Both the position numbers and the translations under genes were made by a program. From NCBI RefSeq assembly GCF_014930455.1, contig NZ_JAAIYO010000008.1, positions 1 through 32,366 on the forward strand: a DNA stretch of 32,366 bases. The letters are read 5' to 3'. This DNA comes from Corallococcus soli (GTDB lineage: Bacteria; Myxococcota; Myxococcia; Myxococcales; Myxococcaceae). The notes under the pieces are model-generated. The model was not told the origin of the DNA. It did no database searches and was given only the letters and a program-made list of their open reading frames with translations. The first letter of the stretch is position 1; each line of letters opens with the position of its first letter. Below are positions 295 through 30,596 of this stretch, piece after piece.

Positions 295-370
295 AGGCCA
301 GTAGCTCCAACGGTAGAGCAGCGGTCTCCAAATCCGCGTGTTGGGGGTTCGAATCCCTCCTGGCCTGCCA
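295..370 (+). tRNA. trnW: tRNA-Trp (anticodon CCA)
   Basis: 76-nt cloverleaf. Acceptor stem AGGCCAG pairs with CTGGCCT, then discriminator G and an encoded CCA. D-arm is GTAGCTCCAACGGTAGAGC. Anticodon loop CTCCAAA gives anticodon CCA. T-arm is GGTTCGAATCC. This is the canonical position between rpmG and secE. Confidence 0.9.
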
Positions 371-379
371 GCTTCAGTA

Positions 380-425
380 CAGGGACCCCCGGTACCGAGC
401 GGTGCCGGGGGTCCCTGCCTTTTCG
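380..425 (+). terminator. Hairpin after tRNA-Trp, terminator or processing signal
   Basis: Perfect 13-bp stem CAGGGACCCCCGG / CCGGGGGTCCCTG (380-392 and 405-417) with a 12-nt loop, followed by CCTTTTCGC. Confidence 0.5.
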
Positions 426-458
426 CAGTCCAGCTTCCGCAGTCCCTCGTGAGGCACC

Positions 459-902
459 ATGGCGACGGCAACTGAGGCCAGCCAGCAGGCTAACCGCTCG
501 GGCATCGACCCCAAGCGGCTCGTGGTCATCTTCTATCTCGTCGCCGGCATCGTCCTGGCCCTCTTCCTGGAGCATGTCTTCGGGTTGCTCTGGAGCCGGT
601 TCGGTTGGAGCGACGTCGAACTCTTCGAAGGCCTGGGCTGGCGTGTATCTACCCTGGTGGGCTACGGCGTGGCCCTCGGGTTGGTGCTGGCAGCCTACTT
701 CCACCCCCGCACACACGCCCTGTCCATCGACGTGGCGTCCGAGCTGATGAAGGTCACCTGGCCCACCTGGTCGGAGACCCGGGCTTCGACCATGGCCGTG
801 GTCGTCGCTTCGCTCGTGGCGGCGGTGCTCCTCTTCTGCATCGACACCGTCGCCTACAACTTGATGGTGGAGTGGCTGCCTGCCCTGTGGGGGAAGCTGT
901 AA
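459..902 (+). CDS. secE: Preprotein translocase subunit SecE (long, multi-TM form)
   Basis: 147-aa ORF with three hydrophobic segments and the conserved C-terminal region (KVTWPTW...VVVASLVAAVLLF). Sits between tRNA-Trp and nusG. GC-rich third codon positions. Confidence 0.88.
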   Translation: MATATEASQQANRSGIDPKRLVVIFYLVAGIVLALFLEHVFGLLWSRFGWSDVELFEGLGWRVSTLVGYGVALGLVLAAYFHPRTHALSIDVASELMKVTWPTWSETRASTMAVVVASLVAAVLLFCIDTVAYNLMVEWLPALWGKL

Positions 903-1450
903 TGGCGAAGAAATGGTTCACGGTCCAGACCTACTCGAACTACGAGAACCAGGCGAAGAAGAACCTGGAGGAGCAGGTGCGCCTCAAGGGCCTTCAGGAC
1001 CAGGACTTGATCGGTGAGATCCTCATCCCCATGGAGCAGGTCGTGGAGATGGTGAACGGCGAGAAGAAGACCACCCGCCGCAAGCTCTTCCCGGGCTACA
1101 TCTTCGTCCAGATGGAGCTCAGCGACACCACCCTGCACCTGGTGAAGAACACCTCCAAGGTGACCGGCTTCCCGGGCGTGGGGCAGAACGAGCAGCCCCG
1201 GCCCATGTCGGACGCGGAGGTCGCCCGGCTCACTGCTCAGGTGACCGAGGGCGCCCACAAGACCAAGCCCAAGGTCCAGTTCGAGACGAGCGACACCGTG
1301 CGCGTCATCGACGGTCCGTTCGCGAACTTCAACGGCACGGTGGAAGAGGTCAACCCGGAGAAGGGCCGCGTCCGCGTGCTCGTCAGCATCTTCGGTCGCG
1401 CGACGCCCGTGGAACTCGATTTCATGCAGGTGGAGAAGACCACCGGCTAA
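902..1450 (+). CDS. nusG: Transcription termination/antitermination factor NusG
   Basis: MAKKWFTVQTYSNYENQAKKNLEE... is an NGN domain, and the C-terminal KOW motif is present (VRVIDGPFANFNGTVEEVNPEKGRVRVLVSIFGRATPVEL). The ATG at 902 overlaps the secE stop (TAATG). The track ORF 605..1450 is an in-frame upstream extension. Confidence 0.95.
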   Translation: MAKKWFTVQTYSNYENQAKKNLEEQVRLKGLQDQDLIGEILIPMEQVVEMVNGEKKTTRRKLFPGYIFVQMELSDTTLHLVKNTSKVTGFPGVGQNEQPRPMSDAEVARLTAQVTEGAHKTKPKVQFETSDTVRVIDGPFANFNGTVEEVNPEKGRVRVLVSIFGRATPVELDFMQVEKTTG

Positions 1451-1458
1451 TCAGGCTT

Positions 1459-1481
1459 CCGCGTCCGGATGACGGGCGCGG
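1459..1481 (+). promoter_or_regulatory. Stem-loop in nusG-rplK spacer, possible attenuator or part of the L11/L1 operon leader
   Basis: CCGCGTCCG / CGGGCGCGG gives a 9-bp stem with one G-U and loop GATGA. It lies in the 103-nt spacer before rplK. L1 autoregulates the rplKA leader in E. coli. Confidence 0.25.
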
Positions 1482-1553
1482 ATCAACGGGTGGGAGGGTC
1501 GTCCCGTCTGGCGACCCGCTGGAACCACCCCATCGAAAGGCAGCAGTCCGCCG

Positions 1554-2000
1554 ATGAAGAAGATCACAGGTCAGGTCAAGTTGCAGATCCCCGCCGGCAA
1601 GGCGAATCCCGCCCCGCCGATTGGTCCCGCCCTCGGTCAGCAGGGCGTGAACATCATGGAGTTCTGCAAGCAGTTCAACGCCAAGACGCAGGCAGAGGCG
1701 AAGGAAGGTCTCATCATCCCGGTGATCATCACCGTGTATGCGGACCGCTCCTTCACCTTCATCATGAAGACGCCTCCCGCCGCCATCCTCATCAAGAAGG
1801 CCGCGGGTCTCCACACGGAGAAGAAGAAGGGTTCGGGCGCGAAGAAGCCGGGCAAGGAGAAGGTGGGGCAGATCACCCGGAAGCAGCTCGAGGAGATCGC
1901 CAACAAGAAGATCCAGGACACCACCGCCGCGTCCCTCGAAGCCTGCATGAACACCATTGCTGGCACCGCGCGCTCCATGGGCATCGAAGTCGTCGGCTAG
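1554..2000 (+). CDS. rplK: 50S ribosomal protein L11
   Basis: [45 protein letters not shown]... is a textbook L11 N-terminus. 148 aa. Confidence 0.95.
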
Positions 2001-2029
2001 CCCGCCCCCATCTTTCAAGGATTCCTGCC

Positions 2030-2743
2030 ATGGCTACCAATGGAAAGAAGTTCCGCGCGTCCTCCGAGCTGGTGGACCGCAACAAGCGCTATCCCGTCGC
2101 CGAGGGCTTCGCGCTGCTGAAGAAGACGGTCGAGTCGCGTGCGACGAAGTACGACCAGACGGTGGATGTCGCCATCAACCTGGGCGTGGACCCGAAGCAC
2201 GCGGACCAGATGGTCCGTGGCGCCGTGGTGCTCCCGCACGGCACCGGCGCCACCGTGCGCGTGGCCGTGTTCGCCAAGGGCGAGCGCGCCACCGAGGCGG
2301 CCAACGCCGGCGCCGACATCGTGGGCGCGGAGGACCTCCAGAAGCGCATTGAGGAGGGCTTCCTCGACTTCGACACCGTCATCGCGACGCCGGACATGAT
2401 GGGCGTGGTCGGTCGCCTCGGTAAGGTGCTCGGTCCCCGCGGCCTCATGCCCAACCCGAAGGTCGGCACGGTCACGATGGACGTGGCCAAGGCCATCCGT
2501 GACTCCAAGGGCGGTAAGGTCGACTTCCGCGCGGAGAAGGCGGGCATCGTCCACGCGAAGATGGGCAAGGCCTCCTTCGAAACGGCCAAGCTGGAGGCGA
2601 ACTTCAACGCGCTGGTGGACCTGGTGATGAAGCTCAAGCCGGCCACCGCGAAGGGCGTCTACCTGCAGGGCATCGCCATCTCGACGACGATGGGGCCGGG
2701 CATCAAGCTCGACACCACCGAAATCCTGGCGCGTCACCGCTAA
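2030..2743 (+). CDS. rplA: 50S ribosomal protein L1
   Basis: [32 protein letters not shown]... matches L1. AAGGA RBS before the ATG at 2030. The track ORF 1469..2743 is an in-frame upstream extension that overlaps rplK. Confidence 0.95.
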
Positions 2744-2847
2744 TTTGCGGGGCGAAGCGGGCCGGAAAAGGTGCGTTCCCTGATGGGGAGCGCCCGTCCT
2801 GTCGCCTGCTGGACGCTGGTCGCATAGAAAGTGCTGGATCTTTGCGA

Positions 2848-2880
2848 AAGCCGGGGGTATAGGCCCCCGGCTTTTGCAAT
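2848..2880 (+). terminator. Intrinsic terminator/attenuator downstream of rplA
   Basis: AAGCCGGGGG / CCCCCGGCTT 10-bp stem with loop TATAGG, then a T-run (CTTTTGCAATT). Confidence 0.5.
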
Positions 2881-3141
2881 TGGAGCGCCATGTCGAGAGA
2901 CACGGTGTTCCGACCTGGTTCATGACAGCAGGGACCTGGAAGGGAAGAAGACGCGTCCGTTGGGAACCGGGCAACCGGTCGGACCGTTGATTCCACTCCT
3001 GGTTCAAACGGCCGCAAGGTCAGCCCTGCCGAGACTGGAGGTGCGGTGTGGTGCCTCTCGGAGGCTCCTCCCTCGCTCTGCCACTTTGGCCCAGGCATCA
3101 CGCCCGACCGTCAGGCCGGGCCATAAAGGAGGTGAGTCAAG
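2881..3141 (+). promoter_or_regulatory. rplJ (L10) mRNA leader, presumed L10(L12)4 autoregulatory region
   Basis: An unusually long structured non-coding spacer, about 400 nt between rplA and rplJ. This matches the long L10 leader known in E. coli and Rfam. It contains several local hairpins and no credible ORF with an RBS. Confidence 0.35.
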
Positions 3142-3663
3142 GTGCTGAAGAGCGAGAAGGAAGTGATGATCAAGGAACTCAACGAGAAGTTCGCCCGGAC
3201 CAAGTCCGCGGTGGTCGCCGAGTTCTCCAAGGTGGATGTGGAGACGGTGACCAAGCTTCGTCGCAAGTTCCGCGAGGGCAAGGTCGAATACAAGGTCATC
3301 AAGAACACGCTGGCGCGCCGTGCTGCTGAAGGCACGCCGTTGTCCGTGATTTCGGATGACTTCACGGGGCCGGTGGCCCTGTGCATCAGCTACGACGACG
3401 TGGTGGCTCCTGCCAAGATCCTGATGGATTTCATCAAGGACATGGAGACCATCAAGGTCCGCAGCGCCGTGGTGGACGGCCGCAAGGTCGACGTCAACGG
3501 CGTGAAGGCGCTGGCGAAGTTGCCGGGCCTCAACGAGCTCCGAGGGCAGCTGCTCGGAATGCTCAACCAGCCTGCTGGCAAGCTGGTTCGGACCATCGCG
3601 GCCCCCGGGTCGCAGCTCGCGCGGGTCATCCAGGCCAACGCGGACAAGTCGAAGCCCGAGTAA
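3142..3663 (+). CDS. rplJ: 50S ribosomal protein L10
   Basis: GTG start 9 nt after a perfect AAGGAGG. MLKSEKEVMIKELNEKFARTKSAVVAEF... 173 aa. Confidence 0.9.
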   Translation: MLKSEKEVMIKELNEKFARTKSAVVAEFSKVDVETVTKLRRKFREGKVEYKVIKNTLARRAAEGTPLSVISDDFTGPVALCISYDDVVAPAKILMDFIKDMETIKVRSAVVDGRKVDVNGVKALAKLPGLNELRGQLLGMLNQPAGKLVRTIAAPGSQLARVIQANADKSKPE

Positions 3664-3755
3664 TCGTCCCGAGAAGTTTTTCTACCGACACCCCCACGGC
3701 TGGGCTGACCCACTGGGTCGCCGGCCGTTAGTCAACACCAGAAGGACACAGTTCC

Positions 3756-4124
3756 ATGGCTGACCTGAACAAGATTGCCGAAGACCTCTCCTCCCTGACC
3801 ATCCTGGAGGCCGCTGAGCTCGTGAAGGCCCTCGAGACCAAGTGGGGCGTTTCCGCCGCGGCCGTTGCCGTTGCCGCGGGTCCCGCCGTCGCCGCCGCTC
3901 CTGTCGAGGAGAAGACGGAGTTCAACGTCGTTCTCGCGAACGCGGGCGCGAACAAGATCAACGTCATCAAGGAGATCCGCGCCATCACCGGCCTGGGCCT
4001 GAAGGAGGCCAAGGACCTGGTCGAGGGCGCGCCCAAGACGGTCAAGGAAGGCGTCAACAAGGACGACGCCAAGAAGATCAAGGACCAGCTCACCGCGGCT
4101 GGCGCCACCGTCGAAGTGAAGTAG
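3756..4124 (+). CDS. rplL: 50S ribosomal protein L7/L12
   Basis: [27 protein letters not shown]..., an Ala/Pro hinge, and a C-terminal domain ending [18 protein letters not shown]...GATVEVK. 122 aa. Confidence 0.95.
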
Positions 4125-4187
4125 TTCTGACAGGGGCTGTCCTGTTCTTCCGGGAAATCCCGGGCAGCCTCCTGACCGGATGAGCAG

Positions 4188-4228
4188 GCCGGCGTCCCCT
4201 TTGCTGGGGCGCCGGCTTTGCCCATTTG
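4188..4228 (+). terminator. rplL-rpoB intercistronic attenuator hairpin
   Basis: Stem is GCCGGCG, a bulged T, then CCCC, pairing with GGGG CGCCGGC (11 bp) around loop TTTGCT, followed by the T-rich TTTGCCCATTTG. The position corresponds to the known partial terminator between rplL and rpoB in E. coli. Two smaller hairpins precede it (4130-4145 and 4149-4164). Confidence 0.45.
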
Positions 4229-4304
4229 ACATTTGCCAAATTTCCCGGCGCCGCCGCGCGTTACTGAAGTTTGCCCCGCCCGAGCAGCCGTCTCCGGAGA
4301 CCGA

Positions 4305-8531
<4,227 letters not shown>

Positions 8532-8561
8532 GCCTTTTTAGCAGCCGGTGCGCCCGCCTGA

Positions 8562-8602
8562 CCGGTCGGTATCGCTTCCTCGTGGAGGGAGCGGCCGACC
8601 GG
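8562..8602 (+). promoter_or_regulatory. Two-helix stem-loop in rpoB-rpoC spacer
   Basis: Outer stem CCGGTCGG (8562-8569) pairs with CCGACCGG (8595-8602). Inner stem CGCTTCCT (8573-8580) pairs with AGGGAGCG (8586-8593) around loop CGTGG. Possible processing or translational-control element. Confidence 0.3.
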
Positions 8603-8663
8603 GTGCAGGGCGGGGGCCCGAAACGTTTGGCGCCTTGAGCGCTCATAAGTTTTCGGAGGCAAC

Positions 8664-12872
<4,209 letters not shown>

Positions 12873-12974: not shown

Positions 12975-13002
12975 TTGACAGCATGTCGCGGTGCGTTATG
13001 TT
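12975..13002 (+). promoter_or_regulatory. Sigma70-like promoter for the downstream phasin-like gene
   Basis: -35 TTGACA (12975-12980), a 16-nt spacer, and -10 TATGTT (12997-13002). It overlaps the direct repeats TTGAC...CGTTAT / TTGAC...CGTTAT. A small hairpin CCCGG / CCGGG at 13023-13036 and a GGGGGAG RBS lie before the ATG at 13051. Confidence 0.3.
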
Positions 13003-13050
13003 GACGCATCACGTTATCTGAGCCCGGGAAGCCGGGCGGGGGAGCAGGAC

Positions 13051-13506
13051 ATGACGACGACGACGAACGCGAAGGTGACGGCCGTGACGCAGAACGTGGA
13101 GAACTTCCTCAAGGGGCAGTTCTCCCAGGCCCAGAAGCGGTTCGAGGGGCTGGAAGGGGAGGCCAACAAGGCCTTCAAGGTGCTGGAGACCCGGAGCCAG
13201 GAAGCGGCGAAGGAGGTCCAGGCCCTGTGGGTGAAGGTGCAGGCCGGTGAGCTGCGCACGGACCCCCGGGTGCAGGAGCTGAGCAAGAAGGTGGACGCCG
13301 CCAGCGTGGAGCTGCGCAAGCGGCTGGACGGGCTGCAGGCGAGGGTCGTGGAGGCGGTGGGCGTCGCCAGCCAGTCCCAGGTGGAGCAGATCACCCACGA
13401 GCTGGGCCGCCTGTCGAAGAAGCTGGATGTACTGCTGAAGCCCACCCGTCGGGCCCACGGCGCGACCAAGAATTCGGGCGGCGCGGCGTCTTCTCCGCGA
13501 GCCTGA
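13051..13506 (+). CDS. Phasin-family (PHA granule-associated-like) coiled-coil protein
   Basis: 151 aa, helical and Ala/Gln/Glu/Lys-rich. The C-terminal motif SQSQVEQITHELGRLSKKLDVLL resembles the conserved phasin C-terminus. The start is moved to the ATG at 13051 (preceded by GGGGGAGCAGGAC) within track ORF 12991..13506. Confidence 0.55.
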   Translation: MTTTTNAKVTAVTQNVENFLKGQFSQAQKRFEGLEGEANKAFKVLETRSQEAAKEVQALWVKVQAGELRTDPRVQELSKKVDAASVELRKRLDGLQARVVEAVGVASQSQVEQITHELGRLSKKLDVLLKPTRRAHGATKNSGGAASSPRA

Positions 13507-13609
13507 GCAGCGTTTTCATAACCTGGGGGGTGTGCTTAGGTGGCCGCCCCCTTTGTTCGAGCCCCGGGTTTCCCATGAGGGAAGGCTGGGGGACTCCCGG
13601 AGCGACTTC

Positions 13610-13960
13610 ATGGACAACAACACCGAGGCCCCCCGGGAGAAGCCGTCCGTGGCGGAAGCCTTCGAGCGCATCTGGAGCCAGGCGCTCCTGGCGGTGAACA
13701 CGGCGGAGGAGGAGGCTTCGCGCGCGGTGCAGCGCGTGGCGTCCGTCGCCGGGTGGAGCCAGGACGAAGTGAAGCGCCAGGCCCGCGAGTTCGCGGAGCG
13801 CCTGACGGGGCACCGCCGGGATCTGGAGCACAACGTGGAAGAGCGGGTCCGCACGGCCCTCTCGCTGTTGAAGCTGCCGCGCCGCGAGGAGTTGCAGGCG
13901 TTTGGCAGCCGATTGGAGCGCCTCTCCGAGCGCATCCAGGCCCTGGAGCACCGCAAGTGA
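13610..13960 (+). CDS. Phasin-family coiled-coil protein, paralogue of the previous gene
   Basis: C-terminal LPRREELQAFGSRLERLSERIQALE is a phasin-like motif, and the body is helical. Start is uncertain: ATG 13610 (MDNNTEAPREK, chosen) or the upstream GTG 13532. Same strand, 104 nt after the first phasin-like gene. Confidence 0.5.
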   Translation: MDNNTEAPREKPSVAEAFERIWSQALLAVNTAEEEASRAVQRVASVAGWSQDEVKRQAREFAERLTGHRRDLEHNVEERVRTALSLLKLPRREELQAFGSRLERLSERIQALEHRK

Positions 13961-13989
13961 GTGGACCCGCCGCCTCGGGCGGCAGGTCG

Positions 13990-14718
13990 TTGGGAACGCG
14001 GTTCTTCGCGGGGCTGCATGCCCTGAGCAGCGGGTGCTCCCGGCTCCCGTTGCTCGCGGGCGTGGCGCTCGTGGTGTCCGCGCGGGTGGTGCCCCTGCTG
14101 GAGGAGCCCACCCCTCCGGCTGGCGTTCCGGAGCACGTGTCGCAGGAGTCCGTCTCCGCGGAGGCGATGCTCATCGACGCGGTGCTGGCCAAGCGCGCTC
14201 CGGACCTGGGGCTCACGCTGCGCCGGCGTCTGGGGCAGGCCATCGACGAGGAGTCCCGCCGCACCGGGTATGACCCGCTGCTGGTGCTGGCGCTCATCGA
14301 CGTGGAGTCCGACTTCGAGGAGGAGTCCGTCTCCGACAAGGGCGCCCGGGGCCTGATGCAGATCAAGCCCAGCACGCTGCACTTCCTGGCGGAGAAGGAG
14401 GGCCTGCGGCTGTCGCGCGAGGAGGTGGTGGCCGACCCCGCCGTGTGTGTGCGTCTGGGCATCCGCTACCTGCGCTCGCTGCAGAGCCGGTTTGGCGGCG
14501 ACCTGGACATGGCGCTGATGGCGTACAACGCCGGCCCCACGCGCATCCGGGACGCCATGAGGGCCGGAGAGCTGGAGAAGTTCCGCCGCTACCCCCGGGC
14601 CGTGCGGCGCGACTTCCGCCGCTTCCGCGAGGGCCATGGCCTGGGCGGAGACTGGGCGCTCGCGCAGCGGGAGCTGCCGCCCGAGCCTCCCGGCGCGACG
14701 ACGACCGCGGCGCCCTGA
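13990..14718 (+). CDS. Soluble lytic murein transglycosylase (SLT domain) with N-terminal signal/anchor
   Basis: The SLT catalytic motif LIDVESDFEEESVSDKGARGLMQIKPSTLHF and the downstream MALMAYNAGPTRI are both present. A hydrophobic N-terminus (RLPLLAGVALVVSARVVPLL) suggests export. The track ORF starts at 13753 inside the preceding gene, so the true start must lie after 13960. TTG 13990 is chosen; GTG 14062 is also possible. Confidence 0.65.
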   Translation: MGTRFFAGLHALSSGCSRLPLLAGVALVVSARVVPLLEEPTPPAGVPEHVSQESVSAEAMLIDAVLAKRAPDLGLTLRRRLGQAIDEESRRTGYDPLLVLALIDVESDFEEESVSDKGARGLMQIKPSTLHFLAEKEGLRLSREEVVADPAVCVRLGIRYLRSLQSRFGGDLDMALMAYNAGPTRIRDAMRAGELEKFRRYPRAVRRDFRRFREGHGLGGDWALAQRELPPEPPGATTTAAP

Positions 14719-14863
14719 CGGGCCGTTTGTCGACGTCCTGGTGAATGTTCGGGCCCGTGGTGGGTTCCAACCCGCGCCACACTCGCCTTGTCCCGATCCC
14801 CCGGGTGCGCTAAGTCGTTGCAAACCCTTGGGACTGTTGAGGATTCCCAGGAGGGATTCCCCC

Positions 14864-15553
14864 ATGCCTCGTCCGTCCGCCCGCATCGCGCTCACCGTCG
14901 CGGCCACGCTCGTGCCCATGTTGGCCCTGGCCGGCTCGGTCTTCCTCAACGGCGTCAACATCGACGGCGTGAGGAACCAGCGCTTCGAGAAGGCCACCGT
15001 CCGCGTCGACGCGGAGGGGAACGTCCACATCGACGCGCCGGGGTATGCCGCCCGCGTGACGACCGTGACGCCCACGCCGGCTCCGGCCGCCAAGGCCCCT
15101 TCGACGCCGCCGGGCCCCGCGCCCGCCGGAGCCCCCGTGGATGCCGGGGTCGCGGCCGCCGTTCCGCCCGCTTCCACGCCGTCCGTGCCGGGGCGCATCA
15201 CCCAGCGCTACTGGCTGGTGACGGAGCAGACGACGCCGGGCATGACGGACTTCGACATCGACGTGTACGTGAACTCGCGCTGGGTGCGTCGTTTGCGCAA
15301 CAACGAGGATCAGGTGGTCCTGGAAGTCACCGGTCAGTTGCGTCCCGGGCCGAACGCGGTGACGCTCATCGCCCGCAAGACGAATCCGGGCAGCCGCCGC
15401 AGCACGTCCGCCAGCAACGTCTTCAAGGTGATCATCGGGGAAGGCAATGAGGGCGGCGGCAACGTGATGATTGACACGCCCCTCATCCGCTTCCAGAAGA
15501 CGGCTGCGGACGCGCAGGACGCGACCGAGGAGTTCACCCTCACCACCCGCTGA
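14864..15553 (+). CDS. Secreted hypothetical protein: signal peptide, N-domain, Pro/Ala-rich linker, C-domain
   Basis: Strong RBS CAGGAGGGA before the ATG at 14864. Signal peptide MPRPSARIALTVAATLVPMLALAGSV. Linker PTPAPAAKAPSTPPGPAPAGAP. No motif I recognise. GC3-rich codons. Confidence 0.6.
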   Translation: MPRPSARIALTVAATLVPMLALAGSVFLNGVNIDGVRNQRFEKATVRVDAEGNVHIDAPGYAARVTTVTPTPAPAAKAPSTPPGPAPAGAPVDAGVAAAVPPASTPSVPGRITQRYWLVTEQTTPGMTDFDIDVYVNSRWVRRLRNNEDQVVLEVTGQLRPGPNAVTLIARKTNPGSRRSTSASNVFKVIIGEGNEGGGNVMIDTPLIRFQKTAADAQDATEEFTLTTR

Positions 15554-19025: not shown

Positions 19026-19112
19026 GCGTGTCGAGCGTTGAACCCGGGCGCCGTGCCGGGTCAGGCTCCCGTGCTTCACTGCGTCCAGCGCCATCCCACC
19101 TGGGAGGGACCG

Positions 19113-20405
19113 ATGAGCGACCCGAAGCCTGAAGCGACGTCCCCCACCGCCTCGCGGGTCCGGGGCCTGGAGCAGATCGATCGGCTGTCCGTGCCCCTGC
19201 CGCACGGCACCGAGGTGACGACGCGCGTGGAGCGCGTGGCCTCCGCCGGGCGCCGCATCCCGCAGGGCGTGGTGGGCCGTGTCGTGCGCGCCCATGACGG
19301 TGGCTTCGACGTGCAGATCGTCGGCGTGGGCGAGGTGTGGTTCGCGCGCGACGAGCTGGTGCCCCGGCGCGTGGGACAGGTCCAGTTCGCGCAGCGGCGC
19401 GAGGCGGCCTGGGGCGCGCTGCGACCGTGCGTGGTGCTGGAGACGCGCGTGGGCAGCCATGCGTGGGGACTCGCGGACGAGCGCTCCGATGTGGACGTGC
19501 GCGGCGTGTTCGCGCTGCCCCTGTCGTGGACCTGGGGCCTGGGGCAGGCGCCACAGGACCTGGTGAGCGCGGACGGCAGCACCACCTACTGGGAGGTCCG
19601 CAAGACGGTGGAGCAGGCCCTGCGCGCGGATCCGAACACGCTCGAAACGCTGTTCGTCCCCGGCGCGAAGGCCTTGGACGTCCTGGGCGAATGGATGCTG
19701 GAGGAGCGCGAGGCGTTCGTCTCCAAGGCCATCTTCGGCAGCTTCGGCCGCTATGCGATGAGTCAGCTCGACAAGCTCACCCGCAGCCAGCGGCTGGCCG
19801 AGCACCGCGACCTGCTCCTCGCGTGGCTGTGCGAGGAGCCCACGCCGGACCTGGACGAGGTGGCGCGGAGGCTGGCCGCCGTGTCTCCCCGGAGCGCGCC
19901 CACGCCCGAGGATGGGGTGCTGGCGGCGAAGACGTACGTCAAGCAGCTCTACCGCTCGCTCTGGGACCAGGGCCTGCTCGCGGCCAACGACTTCGCGGCG
20001 CTGACGGCGTACGCGCGCGGTGGCGGTCAGCGGCCTCCGTCCGCTCGGGAGCTGCGACCGAAGAACGCCTACAACCTGCTGCGGCTGGTGGCGCTGGCGA
20101 CAGGCTGGCTGCGCGACGGGGTCCCCACCTTCGAGGCCACGGGGGCATTGAAGCCGAGGCTGCTCGACATCAAGGGCGGGCAGGTGGCGCTGGAGGACGT
20201 CCTGCGCGACGCGGAGGCGATGGCGCCCGCGCTGGAGGCCGCGCACCGCGAGAGCCGGCTGCCGGAGCATCCGGACTACGCGCGCGCGGACCGGCTGCTG
20301 CGGCGGGTGGGGGACGAGGTGGCGCGGCGCTGGGTGCTGAAGACGCCCGGGCCCCTGGGACGTGACGCACCGGAGGCACCGGCGCTGGAAGGAGGGACGG
20401 AATGA
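19113..20405 (+). CDS. Pol-beta-superfamily nucleotidyltransferase with N-terminal extra domain and C-terminal helical region (function unknown)
   Basis: hG[GS]x9DhD motif ETRVGSHAWGLADERSDVDVRGVF. About 100-aa N-terminal beta-rich domain and about 230-aa C-terminal helical region containing R-x6-H (RSQRLAEH). ATG 19113 has a strong RBS (GGGAGGG); the alternative TTG 19038 lacks one. The stop overlaps the next gene start (ATGA). Confidence 0.7.
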   Translation: MSDPKPEATSPTASRVRGLEQIDRLSVPLPHGTEVTTRVERVASAGRRIPQGVVGRVVRAHDGGFDVQIVGVGEVWFARDELVPRRVGQVQFAQRREAAWGALRPCVVLETRVGSHAWGLADERSDVDVRGVFALPLSWTWGLGQAPQDLVSADGSTTYWEVRKTVEQALRADPNTLETLFVPGAKALDVLGEWMLEEREAFVSKAIFGSFGRYAMSQLDKLTRSQRLAEHRDLLLAWLCEEPTPDLDEVARRLAAVSPRSAPTPEDGVLAAKTYVKQLYRSLWDQGLLAANDFAALTAYARGGGQRPPSARELRPKNAYNLLRLVALATGWLRDGVPTFEATGALKPRLLDIKGGQVALEDVLRDAEAMAPALEAAHRESRLPEHPDYARADRLLRRVGDEVARRWVLKTPGPLGRDAPEAPALEGGTE

Positions 20406-21190
20406 AGGGCACGATGACCGAGCACCAGCAGCGGATGGCGGACCGGGTGCTGGACGAGGAGTCACGCAAGCGCGCTCACCTGGTGGTGGCGCTCTCCGGC
20501 GCGCATGCGTACGGCTTCCCTTCGCCGGACAGCGACCTGGACCTCAAGTCCATCCACATCGCGCCCACCGGCGCGCTCCTGGCCCTCCAGCCCCGGCATG
20601 TGAACGCCGAGCGGCTGGAGGTGCTGGAAGGGGTGGAGGTGGACTACTCGTCCAACGAGCTGCAGCCCGTGCTGCTCGGCATCCTCCAGGGCAACGGCAA
20701 CTACATTGAGCGGGTGCTGGGGGCCATTCCCCTGCGGACCCTCCCGGAGCTGGAGACGCTGCGCCCCCACGTGCGGGCCGTGCTGTCGCGCCGCATCCAC
20801 CGGCACTACCGGGGCTTCGCGTCCGGCCAGCTCCGCGAGTGGGAGAAGGGTGGCTTCCGCTCCGCGAAGAAGCTGCTGTACGTGCTGCGCACCACGCTCA
20901 CCGGGACGCATGCGCTGCGCACGGGTGAAGTGGAGACGGACGTCACCGTCCTCCTGGAGCCGTATGGATTCGGCGACGCGCACGCGCTGGTGGAGCAGAA
21001 GCTCCGGGGGGAGCGCAGCGAGCTGCCCGAGGCGCTCAGCGAGAAGTGGCAGGCGGAGGTGACGCGTGCCTTCGGGGTGCTCGACGCGGCGGATGCGGAC
21101 TCCCACCTGCCCCTGGAGCCGCCTGCCCCCGCCGTGGCCGCCCTCGAAGGGTGGCTGCTCGACGTGCGGCGGCAGCGGTTCGGCGCCTAA
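20402..21190 (+). CDS. Pol-beta-superfamily nucleotidyltransferase with C-terminal helical, HEPN-like(?) domain (function unknown)
   Basis: Motif LSGAHAYGFPSPDSDLDLKSIH (GS...DxD) near the N-terminus. C-terminal helical region with R-x6-H (RTTLTGTH). The ATG overlaps the upstream stop by 4 nt (ATGA), indicating translational coupling. 262 aa. Confidence 0.7.
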   Translation: MKGTMTEHQQRMADRVLDEESRKRAHLVVALSGAHAYGFPSPDSDLDLKSIHIAPTGALLALQPRHVNAERLEVLEGVEVDYSSNELQPVLLGILQGNGNYIERVLGAIPLRTLPELETLRPHVRAVLSRRIHRHYRGFASGQLREWEKGGFRSAKKLLYVLRTTLTGTHALRTGEVETDVTVLLEPYGFGDAHALVEQKLRGERSELPEALSEKWQAEVTRAFGVLDAADADSHLPLEPPAPAVAALEGWLLDVRRQRFGA

Positions 21191-21294: not shown

Positions 21295-23559
21295 ATGAGC
21301 ATGCAGGGTGGCGCCGGAGAAGATCCCGACCGGGGGCGGCGCATCGGAAAATACGAGATCCTCACCCGACTCTCGATGGGAGGGATGGCGGAGCTGTTCC
21401 TCGCGTTCACCTCCGGCCCCGGTGGCTTCCGCAAGTTCGTCGCGGTGAAGCAGATCCTCCCCGACATCAAGAAGGACGATCAGTTCGTCAAGATGTTCCT
21501 CGACGAGGCGCGCATCACGGCCGCCTTCTCGCACGCGAACATCGGGCAGGTCTTCGACCTGGGCGAAGAGGACGGCGAGCTGTACCTCGCCATGGAGTTC
21601 CTGCCCGGCCAGAACCTGGAGCAGGTGGTGAAGATGGCGGCCAAGCGCGACTACGCGCTGCCGCTGGGCTTCAGTGCCCGCGTGGTGCGCGACACCTGCC
21701 TGGGCCTGCACTACGCCCACCACTTCATGGATCCGTCCGGCCGTCCGGTGGCGGTGGTGCACCGGGACGTGTCTCCGAAGAACGTGATGATCACCTACGA
21801 CGGCGTCGTGAAGGTGATCGACTTCGGCATCGCCAAGGCGCGCGGCAAGCTGGGCCGCACGCAGGTGGGCACCGTGAAGGGGACCAGCGGCTACATGTCC
21901 CCGGAGCAGGTTCGCGACAAGGGGCTGGACGGCCGCAGCGACCAGTTCTCCACGGGCGTGATGCTGCACGAACTGCTCGTGGGCCAGCGCCTGTTCAACG
22001 CGCCGGGCGAGGCCGCCGTGATGATGCAGATCGTGGATGGGGAGATCCCCGTGCCGCGCTCGCTCAACGCGGCGATCCCCGAGGCCCTGGAAGCCGTGGT
22101 GCTCAAGTCCCTGTCACGGGATGCCGCGCAGCGCTTCGGGACCTGCCGGGAGATGGCGCGCGCCATCGAAGCCTCGCTGGGCACCGAGCTGTACGACGAA
22201 GACCAGATGACCGCCGTCATGGGCGAGCTCTTCGAGGAGAAGCGCCAGAAGACGCGCACCCTCCTGGAGCTGGCCAGCCGCGCCGAGGACGCCCGCGTCA
22301 GCGAGGCCGCCGGAGCGCTGCAGTCCGAAGAGGGCAGCGACACGGCCGCCGCCGCGGCCACCGCGCAGGTGAAGTCGCCGCGCGCGGAGGCTTCCTCCCA
22401 GGAGCTGGCGCCTTCGTTCCGCCCCACGCCCGTGCGGCGCACGAGCGCTGAGCCGACGACCCCGCCCCGCGCGGGCGCGACCCCGCGTCCTTCCGCCGAA
22501 GCCGCGGAGGCCCGGCCCCCGCGCAGCGACACGCCGCCGATGACGCCGCGCGCGCAGCGCCCCGCGGACGCGGCCGCCGTCGCCCGCCCGGTCCGCCCTC
22601 CCACCGACGCCGCGCGCGCGAACCGTCCCCGGCCCGTTGCCCGCCCGGAGGCCGCCGAGGCCCGGGCCGCGCCCTCCGACGATGCGTTGCTGGATCCACC
22701 CAGCGATCTCCAGACGCAGCGCTTCCGTGCCCGGCCGGCGCGCTCCGGAGCCGGCCCTGGACGCTCCTCGCGCTCTGGAGAGGACGCGTCGGAGTCCGCC
22801 CCGGCGCGGGAGGGTTCCGGCTGGCTGGGCAAGGTGGTGCTGCTGCTCATCCTGGGCGGCGTGGGCTACCTGGCGACGCTCGAGCCGGTGCGCCGCCTGT
22901 TCATGCCGGCGTTCGAGTCCGCGAAGCTGTGGGTGAAGGCGGAGCTGGATCCGCCGCCGCCCGCGGACCCCGCGAAGGACGGCACGTGGCCGCCGAAGCC
23001 CTCCGGTCCGCCGCCGGGCTTCGTGCAGAAGACCGAACCGGAGAAGGCCCCGGAACCGGCCCCCACGCCCGAGCCGGTCGTCGCGGAGGCCCCGCCTGCC
23101 GAGGAGTCGAAGAAGCCTGTCGGCAAGGGCGCCCGCAAGCCGAAGGGGAGCCCCGCGGCCGAAACGCCCACGACCGTCGCGGCGAAGACGCCGGCCGCGC
23201 CCGTGAAGCCCAAGGCGGAACCCTCGGAGCGCCCCCCGGAGCCCGTCACCACCGTGACGCAGGAGCCGGAGGTCGCGGAGGTGCTGGACACGTCCACCGC
23301 CAAGGGCGCCGCGAAGGCGGGCCTGGGCTGGTTGACGCTCTACACGGTGCCCAGGAACGCGGCCGTGTTCGACGGCTCGACCCAACTGGGCACGTCGCCG
23401 TTGATCAAGGTCGCCACCCCCGTGGGCACCTACCGTCTGCGCGTGGTGGATCCGCAGGACCCGGGAGGGACGAGCAAGCTGTTGTCCGTTCCCATCCGTC
23501 CCGGCGAGGTCACCAAGCTGCAGATTCGACTGGCCGACCTCCCGCCCTACACGGAGTGA
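21295..23559 (+). CDS. Membrane Ser/Thr protein kinase with Pro/Ala-rich linker, one TM helix and C-terminal PEGA domain
   Basis: Hanks kinase motifs are present: VAVKQ, HRDVSPKN catalytic loop, DFGIAK, GTSGYMSPE. Then a long low-complexity Pro/Ala/Arg-rich region, TM helix GWLGKVVLLLILGGVGYLATL, and a PEGA-like domain (LTLYTVPRNAAVFDGSTQLGTSPLIKVATPVGTYRLRV). 754 aa. Confidence 0.85.
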   Translation: MSMQGGAGEDPDRGRRIGKYEILTRLSMGGMAELFLAFTSGPGGFRKFVAVKQILPDIKKDDQFVKMFLDEARITAAFSHANIGQVFDLGEEDGELYLAMEFLPGQNLEQVVKMAAKRDYALPLGFSARVVRDTCLGLHYAHHFMDPSGRPVAVVHRDVSPKNVMITYDGVVKVIDFGIAKARGKLGRTQVGTVKGTSGYMSPEQVRDKGLDGRSDQFSTGVMLHELLVGQRLFNAPGEAAVMMQIVDGEIPVPRSLNAAIPEALEAVVLKSLSRDAAQRFGTCREMARAIEASLGTELYDEDQMTAVMGELFEEKRQKTRTLLELASRAEDARVSEAAGALQSEEGSDTAAAAATAQVKSPRAEASSQELAPSFRPTPVRRTSAEPTTPPRAGATPRPSAEAAEARPPRSDTPPMTPRAQRPADAAAVARPVRPPTDAARANRPRPVARPEAAEARAAPSDDALLDPPSDLQTQRFRARPARSGAGPGRSSRSGEDASESAPAREGSGWLGKVVLLLILGGVGYLATLEPVRRLFMPAFESAKLWVKAELDPPPPADPAKDGTWPPKPSGPPPGFVQKTEPEKAPEPAPTPEPVVAEAPPAEESKKPVGKGARKPKGSPAAETPTTVAAKTPAAPVKPKAEPSERPPEPVTTVTQEPEVAEVLDTSTAKGAAKAGLGWLTLYTVPRNAAVFDGSTQLGTSPLIKVATPVGTYRLRVVDPQDPGGTSKLLSVPIRPGEVTKLQIRLADLPPYTE

Positions 23560-28440: not shown

Positions 28441-30596
28441 AGCGCGGCATCCTCGCTGCCCTGTTGCTGGGCGCCTCGGGCCTCACGGGCGCCTGCTCCG
28501 ACACCACCTCCACGGCGGGTGCCGCGGGCCTCACGGGCACGTACGACGTGGTGCTCTCCAACCAGCTCGTCTTCGTCACCTCCCAGGACCGGGACGAGCT
28601 GCGCGTGCTGGACCTCACGCGCACGCCCCGCGAGTTCATCCCCGCGCCCAACCCGCTGGAGTCCCTGGCCATCCCCGTCGTCGAGCGGCCCGACGCGCTC
28701 ACCCGCGACGTGGGCTACGACGCCAAGGGCGATGACGTGTCCGGCCCCTACATCTACGCGCGCAGCTCCGGCGGCCGCAGCATCTCCGTGGTGGCCGCCG
28801 ACCGCGCGCGCCTCAACGAGGTGACGCGGCTGTCCACCGGCCAGCTCATCACCGCCTTCGCCGCGCACGCCCCGGTGGCCGAGGGCGCGCCGAGCGTCCT
28901 GTACTACGCGCTCCAGACCCGCCCGGAGGCCGCCGAGCAGCTCTGCGGTCCCTTCGGCGGCGGGGTGGTGATGCGCCAGGACCTGCCGGCCCCCGACGCC
29001 TTCGACGCCGCGGCCCTTCCTCCCGCGCTGCCCGTCTTCTGCCTGCGCCCGTCGGACACCGTGCTGTCCATGATCGTGATGCCCTCGCGTCCGGACGTGA
29101 CGGACTCGCTGGTGGTCGCCATCCGCAACGTGACGGGCACCAGCCGGCTGGTGCGCGTCGTCGCGGACGGGGCGTCCGTGGAGGTCGCCTACAAGCGTCC
29201 GCGTCCGGCGCCCTACACGGTGCCGACGTACACGGACCTGGTGGACATCCCCGCGCGGCTCGTCGCCACGCACCCGGCCTTCGGTCCGGACACGGCCCGC
29301 GTGCCGGCGGGCCGCTACATCTACGTGCTGCTCGACGAGCTCACCTGCGTCTCGACGGACTGCGAGGGCGTCATCGCGCTCGACAACGGCCCGGATCCCC
29401 TGGTGCCGTCCCCGGCGCCGGTGCTCGCCCGCGACGTCACCGGCGCGCCCATGCTGACGCTGACGCCGCCGGCGGGCCTGCCCACGGGGCTGACGCTGCG
29501 CGCGGGCCTGGAGGTCCGCGAGGTCCTGGCGGATGGCGCGGCCTACACGTCTCCCATTCCGCTGCTGGGCATCATGCCGTCGTCGGACGGGAAGGTGACC
29601 CTGTTCCGCGCGGACGAGCGCCGCGCGTTCAACCTGGACCGCGACCCCACCGCCGGCGCGCTGCGCGCCTCGGTGGCGGTGGAACTGCGCGACGGCTCGG
29701 AGCTCATCCGGGCCGACCAGTTCCAGAGCATCCGGGTGGAGCAGCCGGGCTGCCCGCAGAACGCGGAGGTGACCAACGCCACGGCCTTCCTGTGTGACGG
29801 GACGCTGCCCGGCGGGACCTACCGCTTCGTCTTCCAGGGCATCCTGCCGGGCCTCGTCAACCTGACGCGCGACCTGTCCGTGGAGGATCCCCCCCTGCTG
29901 GTGGAGACCGCCCTGGCCACGTCCCGCGCCGTGATTCCGGGCGACTCCATCGTGCTGGCGAACAACGTGAGCGCCTGCCCGCAGATCGTCCGCATCCTCC
30001 GCCTGGAGGACCAGGGCGATGGCCTCACCCGGCTGTTCCCGGACCTGTCGGACGCGGCCACCGTCAGCGCGCTGGAGACGTGCGCCACGTACTCCAGCTT
30101 CTCCGTGCGCGCCGGGCCGACCACGAAGCCCTTCGTGCTCTATTCGGGCCTGGAGACCGCGGACTCCTACCTGCTGCGGCTGGACGTCGGTGAGGCCTAC
30201 ACGGTGTCCAACCTGCTGAATTACTACTACCACGCGAACGGCTTCGACCTGGGCCTGGACCCGCCCAAGGCGCAGCCGACCTTCGCCCCCGCGCCGCTGT
30301 CGCTCACCCTGACGGCGACGTTCGGAGACCCCTCGCGGTTGAACGCCGGTGACCGCTACGTGGTGACGCTGCTGCCGCGCTTCCGCCGCTTCGTCTTCGG
30401 CGTGGACACCGGCGAAGGCGGCTCGCAGACCAACCTGGGGGCCTACACCCTGCCTGGCTCCGTGGTGGCCACGGACGTGGCGGGCTCCAGCCTGGCCTAC
30501 ATCGCCTATCCCTCCGCGGACGGCGTGCTCCAGGTGGCGCTGGAGCAGATCACCGACAACGCGAACAACCTCCAGTACCTCCGGGCCTTCCAGTAA
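28437..30596 (+). CDS. Large lipoprotein, beta-propeller-like, translationally coupled to the previous gene
   Basis: TTG start overlaps the upstream TGA (CTTGA). Lipoprotein signal KRGILAALLLGASGLTGAC|S. A YVTN-like strand (NQLVFVTSQDRDELRVLDL). The true start must be after 28440 because the track ORF overlaps the upstream gene. 719 aa. Confidence 0.6.
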   Translation: MKRGILAALLLGASGLTGACSDTTSTAGAAGLTGTYDVVLSNQLVFVTSQDRDELRVLDLTRTPREFIPAPNPLESLAIPVVERPDALTRDVGYDAKGDDVSGPYIYARSSGGRSISVVAADRARLNEVTRLSTGQLITAFAAHAPVAEGAPSVLYYALQTRPEAAEQLCGPFGGGVVMRQDLPAPDAFDAAALPPALPVFCLRPSDTVLSMIVMPSRPDVTDSLVVAIRNVTGTSRLVRVVADGASVEVAYKRPRPAPYTVPTYTDLVDIPARLVATHPAFGPDTARVPAGRYIYVLLDELTCVSTDCEGVIALDNGPDPLVPSPAPVLARDVTGAPMLTLTPPAGLPTGLTLRAGLEVREVLADGAAYTSPIPLLGIMPSSDGKVTLFRADERRAFNLDRDPTAGALRASVAVELRDGSELIRADQFQSIRVEQPGCPQNAEVTNATAFLCDGTLPGGTYRFVFQGILPGLVNLTRDLSVEDPPLLVETALATSRAVIPGDSIVLANNVSACPQIVRILRLEDQGDGLTRLFPDLSDAATVSALETCATYSSFSVRAGPTTKPFVLYSGLETADSYLLRLDVGEAYTVSNLLNYYYHANGFDLGLDPPKAQPTFAPAPLSLTLTATFGDPSRLNAGDRYVVTLLPRFRRFVFGVDTGEGGSQTNLGAYTLPGSVVATDVAGSSLAYIAYPSADGVLQVALEQITDNANNLQYLRAFQ

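Follow-up and report, generated by a model that had tools for sequence, protein, structure and literature searches.

The DNA analysed here is a 32,366-nucleotide (nt) stretch of the Corallococcus soli genome (contig NZ_JAAIYO010000008.1, positions 1 to 32,366), which we call the window, and our subject is a pair of adjacent genes within it. We refer to the first open reading frame (ORF), ORF1, as RlaP-L or simply L, for long subunit, and to the second, ORF2, as RlaP-S or S, for short subunit. Judging from their sequences, both almost certainly belong to the RlaP family of Pol-beta-superfamily nucleotidyltransferases (NTases; Pfam PF10127), and we propose that together they probably constitute a two-component RNA NTase that rebuilds damaged RNA 3' ends. 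The features that define the pair are as follows.

19113..20405, plus strand: ORF1 (RlaP-L), ATG to TGA, 430 amino acids (aa), from the ORF list
20402..21190, plus strand: ORF2 (RlaP-S), ATG to TAA, 262 aa, from the ORF list
20402..20405, plus strand: ATGA start/stop overlap (translational coupling), ATG at 20402-20404 over TGA at 20403-20405
19102..19109, plus strand: Shine-Dalgarno-like GGGAGGGA, 3 nt 5' of the ORF1 ATG, read from the sequence
20390..20396, plus strand: Shine-Dalgarno AGGAGGG for ORF2, within the 3' end of ORF1, read from the sequence

A first-pass annotation of this DNA had described two ORFs of 430 and 262 aa overlapping by ATGA; we confirmed the coordinates from the ORF list and the sequence, and the translational coupling that it had read from the overlap at 20402-20405 is borne out as well. 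Both starts are preceded by a strong Shine-Dalgarno sequence. The GC content at third codon positions (0.91 in ORF1, 0.91-0.92 over the two genes) indicates that both are genuine, and the pair is conserved far beyond chance, as orthologues of the two proteins are 65-97% identical across Myxococcaceae and Archangiaceae. This range is that of ORF1, which shares 97% identity with proteins from Corallococcus sp. CA047B and C. praedator, and the corresponding range for ORF2 is 64-94% across the Myxococcia homologues found; the orthologous pair of M. xanthus stands at 86% and 81%. A scan for sigma-70 promoters and terminators around the operon returned nothing meaningful, and repeat and Rfam scans of the locus gave nothing relevant, the sole Rfam match in the window being a tRNA at 295-367.

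The assignment to RlaP comes from matches to PF10127 that lie well above the gathering cut-off of 23 bits: ORF1 matches over aa 107-226 (E 7e-20, 72.1 bits, profile positions 20-144), and ORF2 matches from profile position 20 to the end of the profile (E 3e-23, 83.3 bits, positions 20-249 of 249). PF10127 is the family of RNA-ligase-associated Pol-beta NTases, also called the "RNA repair pathway DNA polymerase beta family"; the name RlaP derives from the association of these genes with RNA ligase genes. At E<=1, Pfam gave no HEPN, NTP_transf_2, SMODS, CD-NTase, KNTase, ANT, GlnE, DrrA or DUF4037 match to either ORF, NCBIfam and PADLOC returned zero matches, and a sequence search of PDB chains found only chance matches (E>0.1). 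Thus, the first-pass annotation was right to place the two proteins in the Pol-beta superfamily with intact catalytic motifs, but the likeness that it saw to MNT-HEPN, KNTase and SMODS/CD-NTase proteins finds no counterpart in these profile searches, and the same is true of DUF4037. Nor are the proteins uncharacterised NTases, as it had called them, since both belong to a family for which biochemistry has now been published (PMC12776372).

In NCBI and UniRef, the name given to many orthologues of ORF1 in Corallococcus is "UDP-phosphate N-acetylglucosaminyl 1-phosphate transferase" or "Undecaprenyl-phosphate...", and the name "DNA polymerase beta superfamily protein" also occurs among the orthologues. 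The UDP-phosphate and undecaprenyl-phosphate names have no relation to the PF10127 content of these proteins and look like a misannotation that has spread. The assignment to RlaP corrects the misleading names, "DNA polymerase beta superfamily protein" included.

Both subunits carry the set of residues expected of a Pol-beta NTase (hG[GS]...DxD and a third carboxylate), and in both this set is conserved. The motif of ORF1 is G114-S115...D126-x-D128, with the spacing GS-x10-DxD, while that of ORF2 is G33-A34...D45-x-D47, in which the usual G-S is replaced by G-A at positions 33-34. A GS-x9-DxD motif had been ascribed to both proteins; the motifs are indeed there, but the spacing in ORF1 is x10, and in ORF2 the dipeptide is GA, S32-G33 having been misread. 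The conservation of this motif in orthologues had been set as a check, and the DxD of both ORFs is invariant in hundreds of relatives. Among 285 L-type sequences, the catalytic set G114, S115, D126, D128, E161 and E178 is near-invariant (at least 87% per group), and among 245 S-type sequences, comprising stand-alone proteins and the C-terminal halves of fusions, the core residues G33, A34, D45, D47, E79, D81 and E103 are invariant. The two proteins nevertheless share little: in a BLASTP comparison of ORF1 with ORF2 only the active-site segment GxHAxG...SDxD aligns, and an hhalign comparison of the L-type and S-type profiles covers the NTase core only (ORF1 108-224 with ORF2 27-149, 96% probability). 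The two are very distant paralogues.

The domains of the two proteins, placed on AlphaFold2 (AF2) models, Pfam matches, conservation and profile alignments, are these.

19185..19367, plus strand: RlaP-L N-terminal SH3/KOW/Tudor-like beta-barrel, aa 25-85, with a conserved LPxGT motif
19431..19727, plus strand: RlaP-L Pol-beta NTase core, aa 107-205 (G114-S115, D126-x-D128, E161, E178), from Pfam, conservation and hhalign
19728..20336, plus strand: RlaP-L helical domain, aa 206-408, with motif K317-NAYNLL-R324, from AF2 helices 206-408
19779..20060, plus strand: helical insertion of about 90 aa, aa 223-316, in the Myxococcota long form only, gapped in forms of about 300 aa
20471..20740, plus strand: RlaP-S NTase core, aa 24-113 (G33-A34, D45-x-D47, E79, D81, E103), from conservation
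20744..21184, plus strand: RlaP-S HEPN-fold helical domain, aa 115-261
20867..20911, plus strand: RlaP-S conserved helix K156-LLY-x2-R163-x6-H170

The AF2 models were of good quality (mean predicted local distance difference test score 88.8 and predicted TM-score 0.81 for ORF1, 94.6 and 0.91 for ORF2). In that of ORF1, about 20 disordered residues precede the barrel, and a linker helix joins the barrel to the NTase core; this barrel is the extra N-terminal beta-rich domain that had been recognised from the sequence alone. The modelled fold is of a type used in nucleic-acid binding and would point to nucleic acid as the substrate. In both models the core strands and helices are followed by further helices that lead to a long C-terminal helix, an arrangement comparable with that of the Pseudomonas fluorescens enzyme PfRlaP, which we compared by its published description only. 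The insertion at aa 223-316 of ORF1, missing as alignment gaps from the L relatives of about 300 aa in Deinococcus and cyanobacteria, carries the sequence RSQRLAEH (19782-19805) and the conserved residues S282, D285 and G287.

Conservation outside the catalytic set follows the same domains. Across four architectures of L-type proteins (n=285), the conserved positions are G32, T33 and R79 in the N-terminal part, G114, S115, D126, D128, G131, W160, E161, E178 and S204 around the core, and Y214, Q218, K317 and R324 beyond it, the last two being kept in all architecture groups. In S-type proteins (n=245), G33, H35, G38, F39, S41, D43, S44, D45, D47, K49, E79, D81, G97, G99, N100, E103, H135, Y136, G138 and F139 are invariant or almost so, as are K156, Y160, R163, G168 and H170 of the helical domain. 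L retains the helix motif that is canonical for RlaP, as KNAYNLLRL, to be compared with the KNARHMLRL of a single-subunit Gordonia phage RlaP, and S has the variant AKKLLYVLR-x6-H; the K-x6-R helices of L and S were equated by eye, the hhalign alignment being limited to the NTase core.

On the model, the C-terminal domain of ORF2 forms a four-helix bundle and can be assigned to the HEPN fold at fold level. The HEPN/KNTase-like tails of the first-pass annotation are thus supported for ORF2 as a fold, but not as a family, given the lack of any HEPN or KNTase Pfam match at E<=1. The R-x6-H spacing that it had noted in both proteins also divides. It is present in each, and in ORF2 (R163-x6-H170, in the domain's second long helix, residues 155-174) it is a family-wide feature (R in 100% and H in 94-100% of 245 sequences), but in ORF1 (R224..H231) it is lineage-specific, H231 being conserved within Myxococcia only and dropping to 6-26% conservation in the other architecture groups.

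When the whole ORF2 model was compared with known structures, the matches were enzymes that likewise combine an NTase with a helical domain: DrrA (10.5), HalB (10.1), ANT(3'')(9) (9.5), AAD(9) (9.0), GlnE (8.6) and KNTase (7.0). This similarity of fold is the sole support for a reading in which the pair would adenylylate small molecules or proteins, in the manner of the ANT and Lnu antibiotic NTases or of the DrrA and GlnE AMPylases, and we consider such an activity improbable. Sequence identity to these proteins is 9-14%, Pfam gives no ANT, KNTase, GlnE or DrrA match at E<=1, and neither protein nor DNA is a substrate of the characterised RlaPs (PMC12776372). Moreover, relatives of the pair reside in RNA-repair operons, and the SH3/KOW-like domain points to nucleic acid.

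The special character that had been claimed for the paired arrangement is confirmed in other genomes, where adjacency, the 4-nt overlap and fusions recur. We sampled 170 loci from genomes, metagenomes and assemblies, of which 167 were tallied. In 117 of these S comes immediately after L, with a 4-nt ATGA or GTGA overlap in 74 of the 117 adjacent pairs, and the two form one uninterrupted fusion frame in a further 12; S is further away in 3 loci, a contig edge intervenes in 13, and 6 have no long L-type match on the query strand. A scan of genome contigs yielded at least 80 loci, all from Myxococcia and dominated by close relatives, with an S orthologue directly 3' of L in about 65. Within this set the pair persists across Myxococcus, Archangium, Cystobacter, Stigmatella and Anaeromyxobacteraceae, whereas recO, pfkB, the Ser/Thr kinase gene and glyQS are syntenic with it only in the ten Corallococcus loci. 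Conservation of the pair across myxobacteria, which had been proposed as a check, therefore extends across genera and beyond the flanking synteny, and a search for a conserved third gene around the pair found none shared beyond synteny at the level of the genus.

The natural fusions, found in an exhaustive search of representative proteins with ORF1, are proteins of 640-725 aa. Their N-terminal half (about 390 aa) is 34-40% identical to ORF1, and their C-terminal half (about 250 aa) is 39-42% identical to ORF2 (E 1e-43 to 1e-45). At least 125 clusters of fused L-S proteins were collected, a search with a fusion profile listed more than 100, and both catalytic sets are invariant in the fusions. 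Few are labelled by source, as "MAG: Myxococcota" (metagenome-assembled genome, MAG) or "Deltaproteobacteria", and the taxonomy of the fusions is drawn from these few labels. Given the conserved order, the translational coupling and the repeated fusion, we infer that the products act as one complex, and a physical heteromer of L and S is quite likely.

The same observations bear on the idea of an MNT-HEPN toxin-antitoxin module, in which one NTase would neutralise a HEPN RNase carried by the other protein. Both proteins consist of a full NTase and a helical domain instead of a small MNT beside a small HEPN, neither has a HEPN or NTP_transf_2 Pfam match (E<=1), PADLOC is empty, and frequent fusion into a single polypeptide is atypical of toxin-antitoxin pairs. 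The identity of 64-97% among myxobacterial homologues, the adjacency across genera and a window free of mobile-element context argue in the same direction, as does the poor conservation of the ORF1 R-x6-H outside Myxococcia. We regard this explanation as very improbable indeed, the least probable of those considered here.

Two clades have neighbours of their own. In a Hyalangium-like clade, tandem arrays of two to six mutually similar minus-strand ORFs, each of about 100 aa and without Pfam matches, lie upstream of a solo RlaP-L (L038 5107-7209, L042 4302-6110, L041 6890-7480), which is followed not by RlaP-S but by a convergent gene for a deoD-type purine nucleoside phosphorylase. In one clade of fused genes, a gene for a 251-252-aa S-adenosylmethionine (SAM) methyltransferase of the Methyltransf_11 type abuts or overlaps the start of the fused gene (L083 7243-8001, L084 439-1197, L086 7244-7999, L087 2709-3464), with DUF924 and DUF937 genes downstream. 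By analogy with the Hen1 methyltransferase, Methyltransf_11 may be a partner in function, but synteny within the clade could also account for its position.

Some relatives of the pair lie in RNA-repair loci. The pair adjoins Hen1 in four places, three of them Deinococcus plasmids and the fourth a metagenome contig, and in three of these four it lies inside a Hen1-L-S-Pnkp arrangement. On D. gobiensis plasmid P2 and D. ficus pDFI2, the order is Hen1-L-S-(optional hypothetical)-Pnkp, with 4-nt overlaps throughout; here, L is 304-318 aa long and 34% identical to ORF1, the barrel included, and S is 259-264 aa long, its full-length alignment with ORF2 showing 31% identity (E 7e-32). The D. taeanensis locus reads Hen1-L-S and has a gene of the Thg1 family close by, and the metagenome contig has Hen1-L-S-Pnkp. 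Closer to Corallococcus, L is directly preceded in an Archangiaceae MAG by a Hen1_L fragment and a HEAT-repeat gene, and in a Myxococcia MAG, RtcR, RtcB and RtcA lie 2 kb from the pair. In two further loci, a fused gene and the gene for an RtcR-type sigma-54 activator point away from each other (L082), and RtcB is found 4.6 kb from the pair (L153). Altogether, RNA-repair genes occur near the pair in about 8 of the 170 loci, which span two unrelated ligase systems and three phyla, and such recurrence is the behaviour that defines RlaP. A defence or signalling role had earlier been left open; RNA repair fits better, as the pair adjoins Hen1 in Deinococcus.

Immediately downstream of the Hen1-L-S-Pnkp genes of D. 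gobiensis P2 lie an AbiEi/AbiEii toxin-antitoxin pair and IS3 transposases (L168 11765-13139), which places this Deinococcus repair operon in a conflict and mobile-element setting. The AbiEi/AbiEii toxin is itself an NTase.

A further possibility is that the pair tails or matures RNA 3' ends constitutively, for instance in quality control of tRNA and small RNAs or in marking for decay, with the same chemistry as in repair. In Myxococcia the pair stands alone, occurs in nearly all of the sampled genomes and is strongly conserved (L 65-97%, S 64-94% identity), it lies among housekeeping genes in the window, and most loci have no ligase nearby, all of which would suit such a role. However, every informative neighbour belongs to a repair system (Pnkp/Hen1, RtcBA/RtcR or Thg1), and the published RlaPs prefer mimics of broken tRNA (PMC12776372). 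On balance, we hold constitutive tailing to be unlikely, and the addition of nucleotides to RNA 3' ends in the course of repair is, by analogy, the role that we would somewhat expect.

In Corallococcus itself, the surroundings of the pair are those of a core chromosome. The window runs from a tRNA gene through secE, rplKAJL, rpoBC, genes for a TPR protein and an HTH_25 protein, recO and pfkB to the pair, and continues with the Ser/Thr kinase gene, glyQS, a Pfam-free stretch and genes for an FHA protein and a prepilin-peptidase-like protein. The genes that mark its first part are listed below.

295-367: tRNA, from Rfam
459-902: secE
1554-2000: rplK
3142-3663: rplJ
about 4233-8531: rpoB
about 8649-12872: rpoC

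This housekeeping cluster at 295-12872 shows that the window is core chromosome and not an island. Co-occurrence with defence islands, another check that had been proposed, is thus not seen, the window being made up of housekeeping genes (rplKAJL-rpoBC, recO, glyQS) and PADLOC being empty. The sugar kinase and Ser/Thr kinase that had been noted as flanks are present, as a PfkB kinase and a Pkinase-domain protein, but are irrelevant to the pair; we considered them as functional partners and rejected them because their synteny with it is confined to Corallococcus.

This setting also bears on a possible role in anti-phage defence, in which the pair would make nucleotide signals or oligonucleotides as Hailong HalB or the CD-NTase/SMODS enzymes do. 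The structural match to HalB, among the best obtained, is what speaks for it. Its identity to the pair is 11-14%, PADLOC is empty and no SMODS or CD-NTase Pfam match was obtained, the chromosomal setting is a housekeeping one, and no effector, channel or sensor gene is conserved with the pair in the 170 loci. The L-S module is, furthermore, nearly absent from viral contigs, with 2-3 matches in 2.9 million. We judge such signalling a shade less probable even than adenylylation of small molecules or proteins.

Several other features of the window deserve mention. In the Ser/Thr kinase (21295-23559), a Pkinase domain at aa 33-282 is followed by a long linker rich in Pro and Ala, then by a predicted membrane segment and a Pfam-free C-terminal domain. 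Between 26850 and 30596 no long ORF has a Pfam match; a putative protein of about 640 aa, read at about 28680-30596 on the plus strand, begins with a lipoprotein-like signal (LLLGASGLTGAC), and at 26.85-28.6 kb no ORF has convincing codon-position GC. In the region 12979-15553, where gene calls are uncertain, a phasin-like ORF at 13439-13960 is followed by sequence with atypical codon-position GC and no Pfam matches, in which the gene may be 13516-15207 on the minus strand or 14561-15553 on the plus strand.

Recent biochemistry on the Pseudomonas RlaPs allows a mechanism to be proposed. PfRlaP and PaRlaP, from P. fluorescens and P. aeruginosa, are encoded between rtcB and rtcA, and according to a December 2025 preprint (PMC12776372) they label RNA but neither DNA nor protein, add one or two nucleoside monophosphates (NMPs), or deoxynucleoside monophosphates (dNMPs), to an RNA 3'-OH, and prefer mimics of broken tRNA and Mn2+. 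The crystal structure of PfRlaP consists of an NTase and a helical domain that together form a cleft, with the final helix packing back (PMC12776372). By extension from these enzymes, the substrate of the Corallococcus pair would be an RNA 3'-OH and its role would be in repair. L and S would be made in a fixed ratio from one translationally coupled operon and would associate as a heteromer that has two active sites of the Pol-beta type, or be present as a single chain in sister lineages. Each NTase core would bind a nucleoside triphosphate (NTP) and Mn2+ through its G[S/A]...DxD motif and the third carboxylate, with each cleft closed over by a helical domain, the HEPN-fold one in S and its equivalent in L, the conserved K/Y/R(/H) helix serving NTP or RNA binding, and the SH3/KOW-like barrel of L holding or recruiting RNA or a partner. 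The complex would then extend the 3'-OH of a broken or trimmed tRNA or rRNA by one NMP or a few, replacing nucleotides lost to ribonuclease damage, after which a ligase encoded elsewhere, such as RtcB following end remodelling or a 5'-P ligase such as Pnkp, would reseal the RNA. M. xanthus has several RtcB ligase paralogues elsewhere in its genome, as stated in a passage of PMC10630183 that cites Maughan & Shuman 2015.

Some observations weigh against this proposal. The Pseudomonas RlaPs are single-subunit enzymes that belong to a different cluster and are encoded inside the RtcBA operon, whereas the pair consists of two divergent paralogues that are coupled or fused. L occurs without a nearby S in 16 of the 167 tallied loci, for example in the Hyalangium-like clade, so it seems that L can do without S or have it encoded at another place in the genome. 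The argument for a heteromer is drawn only from gene fusion and coupling, and the G-A of S in place of G-S may mean that this subunit is catalytically weaker or regulatory. In addition, no RNA ligase, Pnkp, Hen1, RtcA/B or RtcR gene is found within the 32-kb window, which does not exclude membership in RlaP, since many PF10127 members are likewise not linked to a ligase. The connection with RNA repair is by descent and by a minority context, most of the 170 loci having no repair gene.

A more specific version of the proposal is that L and S form an obligate heterodimer or fused chain, whose two non-equivalent sites share the healing of RNA ends; we consider this doubtful, if a little less so than constitutive tailing. 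The two sites could, by analogy with split CC- and A-adding enzymes, add successive and possibly different nucleotides, at least two residues being lost to "smart" ribotoxins. Alternatively, the HEPN-fold domain of S, with its invariant R163-x6-H170, may trim the damaged end and the NTase of L refill it. The SH3/KOW-like domain may then select the RNA, and in Myxococcia the module may be a stand-alone core function tied to the many RtcB paralogues and to the nuclease toxins that pass between these predatory, social bacteria.

Of all the components of bacterial and phage RNA-repair systems, RlaP is the one understood least. It was reportedly named by Burroughs and Aravind in 2016, and that founding comparative paper lay outside the literature we could search. 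In the searchable literature, we found no description of the heteromeric or fused L-S form, of the SH3/KOW-like domain or of the placement of L-S in Pnkp/Hen1 operons, a negative that leaves room for prior mention in the founding paper. The family is already known and annotated, so it is its two-paralogue form that we found undescribed, and not a new kind of system. The first biochemistry on RlaP is the December 2025 preprint, which deals with single-subunit enzymes only and leaves open what controls the choice of nucleotide and what limits addition to 1-2 nt (PMC12776372). The two-paralogue form is widespread, conserved in order, coupled, repeatedly fused and, in Deinococcus, embedded in Pnkp/Hen1 operons. 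Such a form suggests an asymmetric, two-site mode of action for part of the RlaP family.

The known systems compared with the pair include the NTase and HEPN-fold proteins KNTase/ANT(4'), ANT(3'')(9), GlnE, DrrA and the MNT-HEPN module SO_3166/3165, from which it differs by an identity of 4-14% and the lack of any profile match; their substrates are antibiotics or proteins, or they follow a toxin-antitoxin logic, and none resides in an RNA-repair operon. Hailong HalB (PDB 9dbh/9dbj) makes oligodeoxyadenylate signals for the HalA channel, whereas the pair, 11-14% identical to it, has no HalA-like partner and no defence context. A parallel in logic is given by the split CC-adding and A-adding tRNA nucleotidyltransferases, class II CCA enzymes found in Aquifex, Deinococcus and some cyanobacteria. 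Here too, two related Pol-beta NTases rebuild an RNA 3' end stepwise, but they belong to a different family and their genes are not, as a rule, coupled or fused; a comparable division of labour between L and S would be hypothetical. The phage RlaPs, such as T4 NrdC.11 and the "tRNA nucleotidyltransferase" of a Gordonia phage, share GS...DxD and KNAxHxLRL with ORF1, and their genes adjoin RNA ligase genes. They differ in being single genes of about 225 aa that have neither an SH3-like domain nor a paired paralogue.

Another known system is the Pnkp/Hen1 operon (studied by the Huang laboratory; PMC4411300 describes the Pnkp1-Rnl-Hen1 variant), in which orthologues of both ORFs directly follow hen1 on three Deinococcus megaplasmids and one metagenome contig, in the same order, with 4-nt overlaps and at 31-34% identity. 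The core complex described for Pnkp/Hen1 does not include the NTase pair, which in Corallococcus has no adjoining Hen1 or Pnkp, these having been lost or never present. Compared with the Pseudomonas RlaPs, L is larger by the SH3/KOW-like domain and by the insertion of some 90 aa, G-A replaces G-S in S, and no ligase gene is adjacent. Nevertheless, the Corallococcus proteins and the Pseudomonas enzymes have in common PF10127 and three conserved acidic residues and, as far as the models can be set against the published description of PfRlaP, would share an N-terminal Pol-beta core, a C-terminal helical domain and a terminal helix; by extension the pair may also add 1-2 NMPs to an RNA 3'-OH with a preference for Mn2+.

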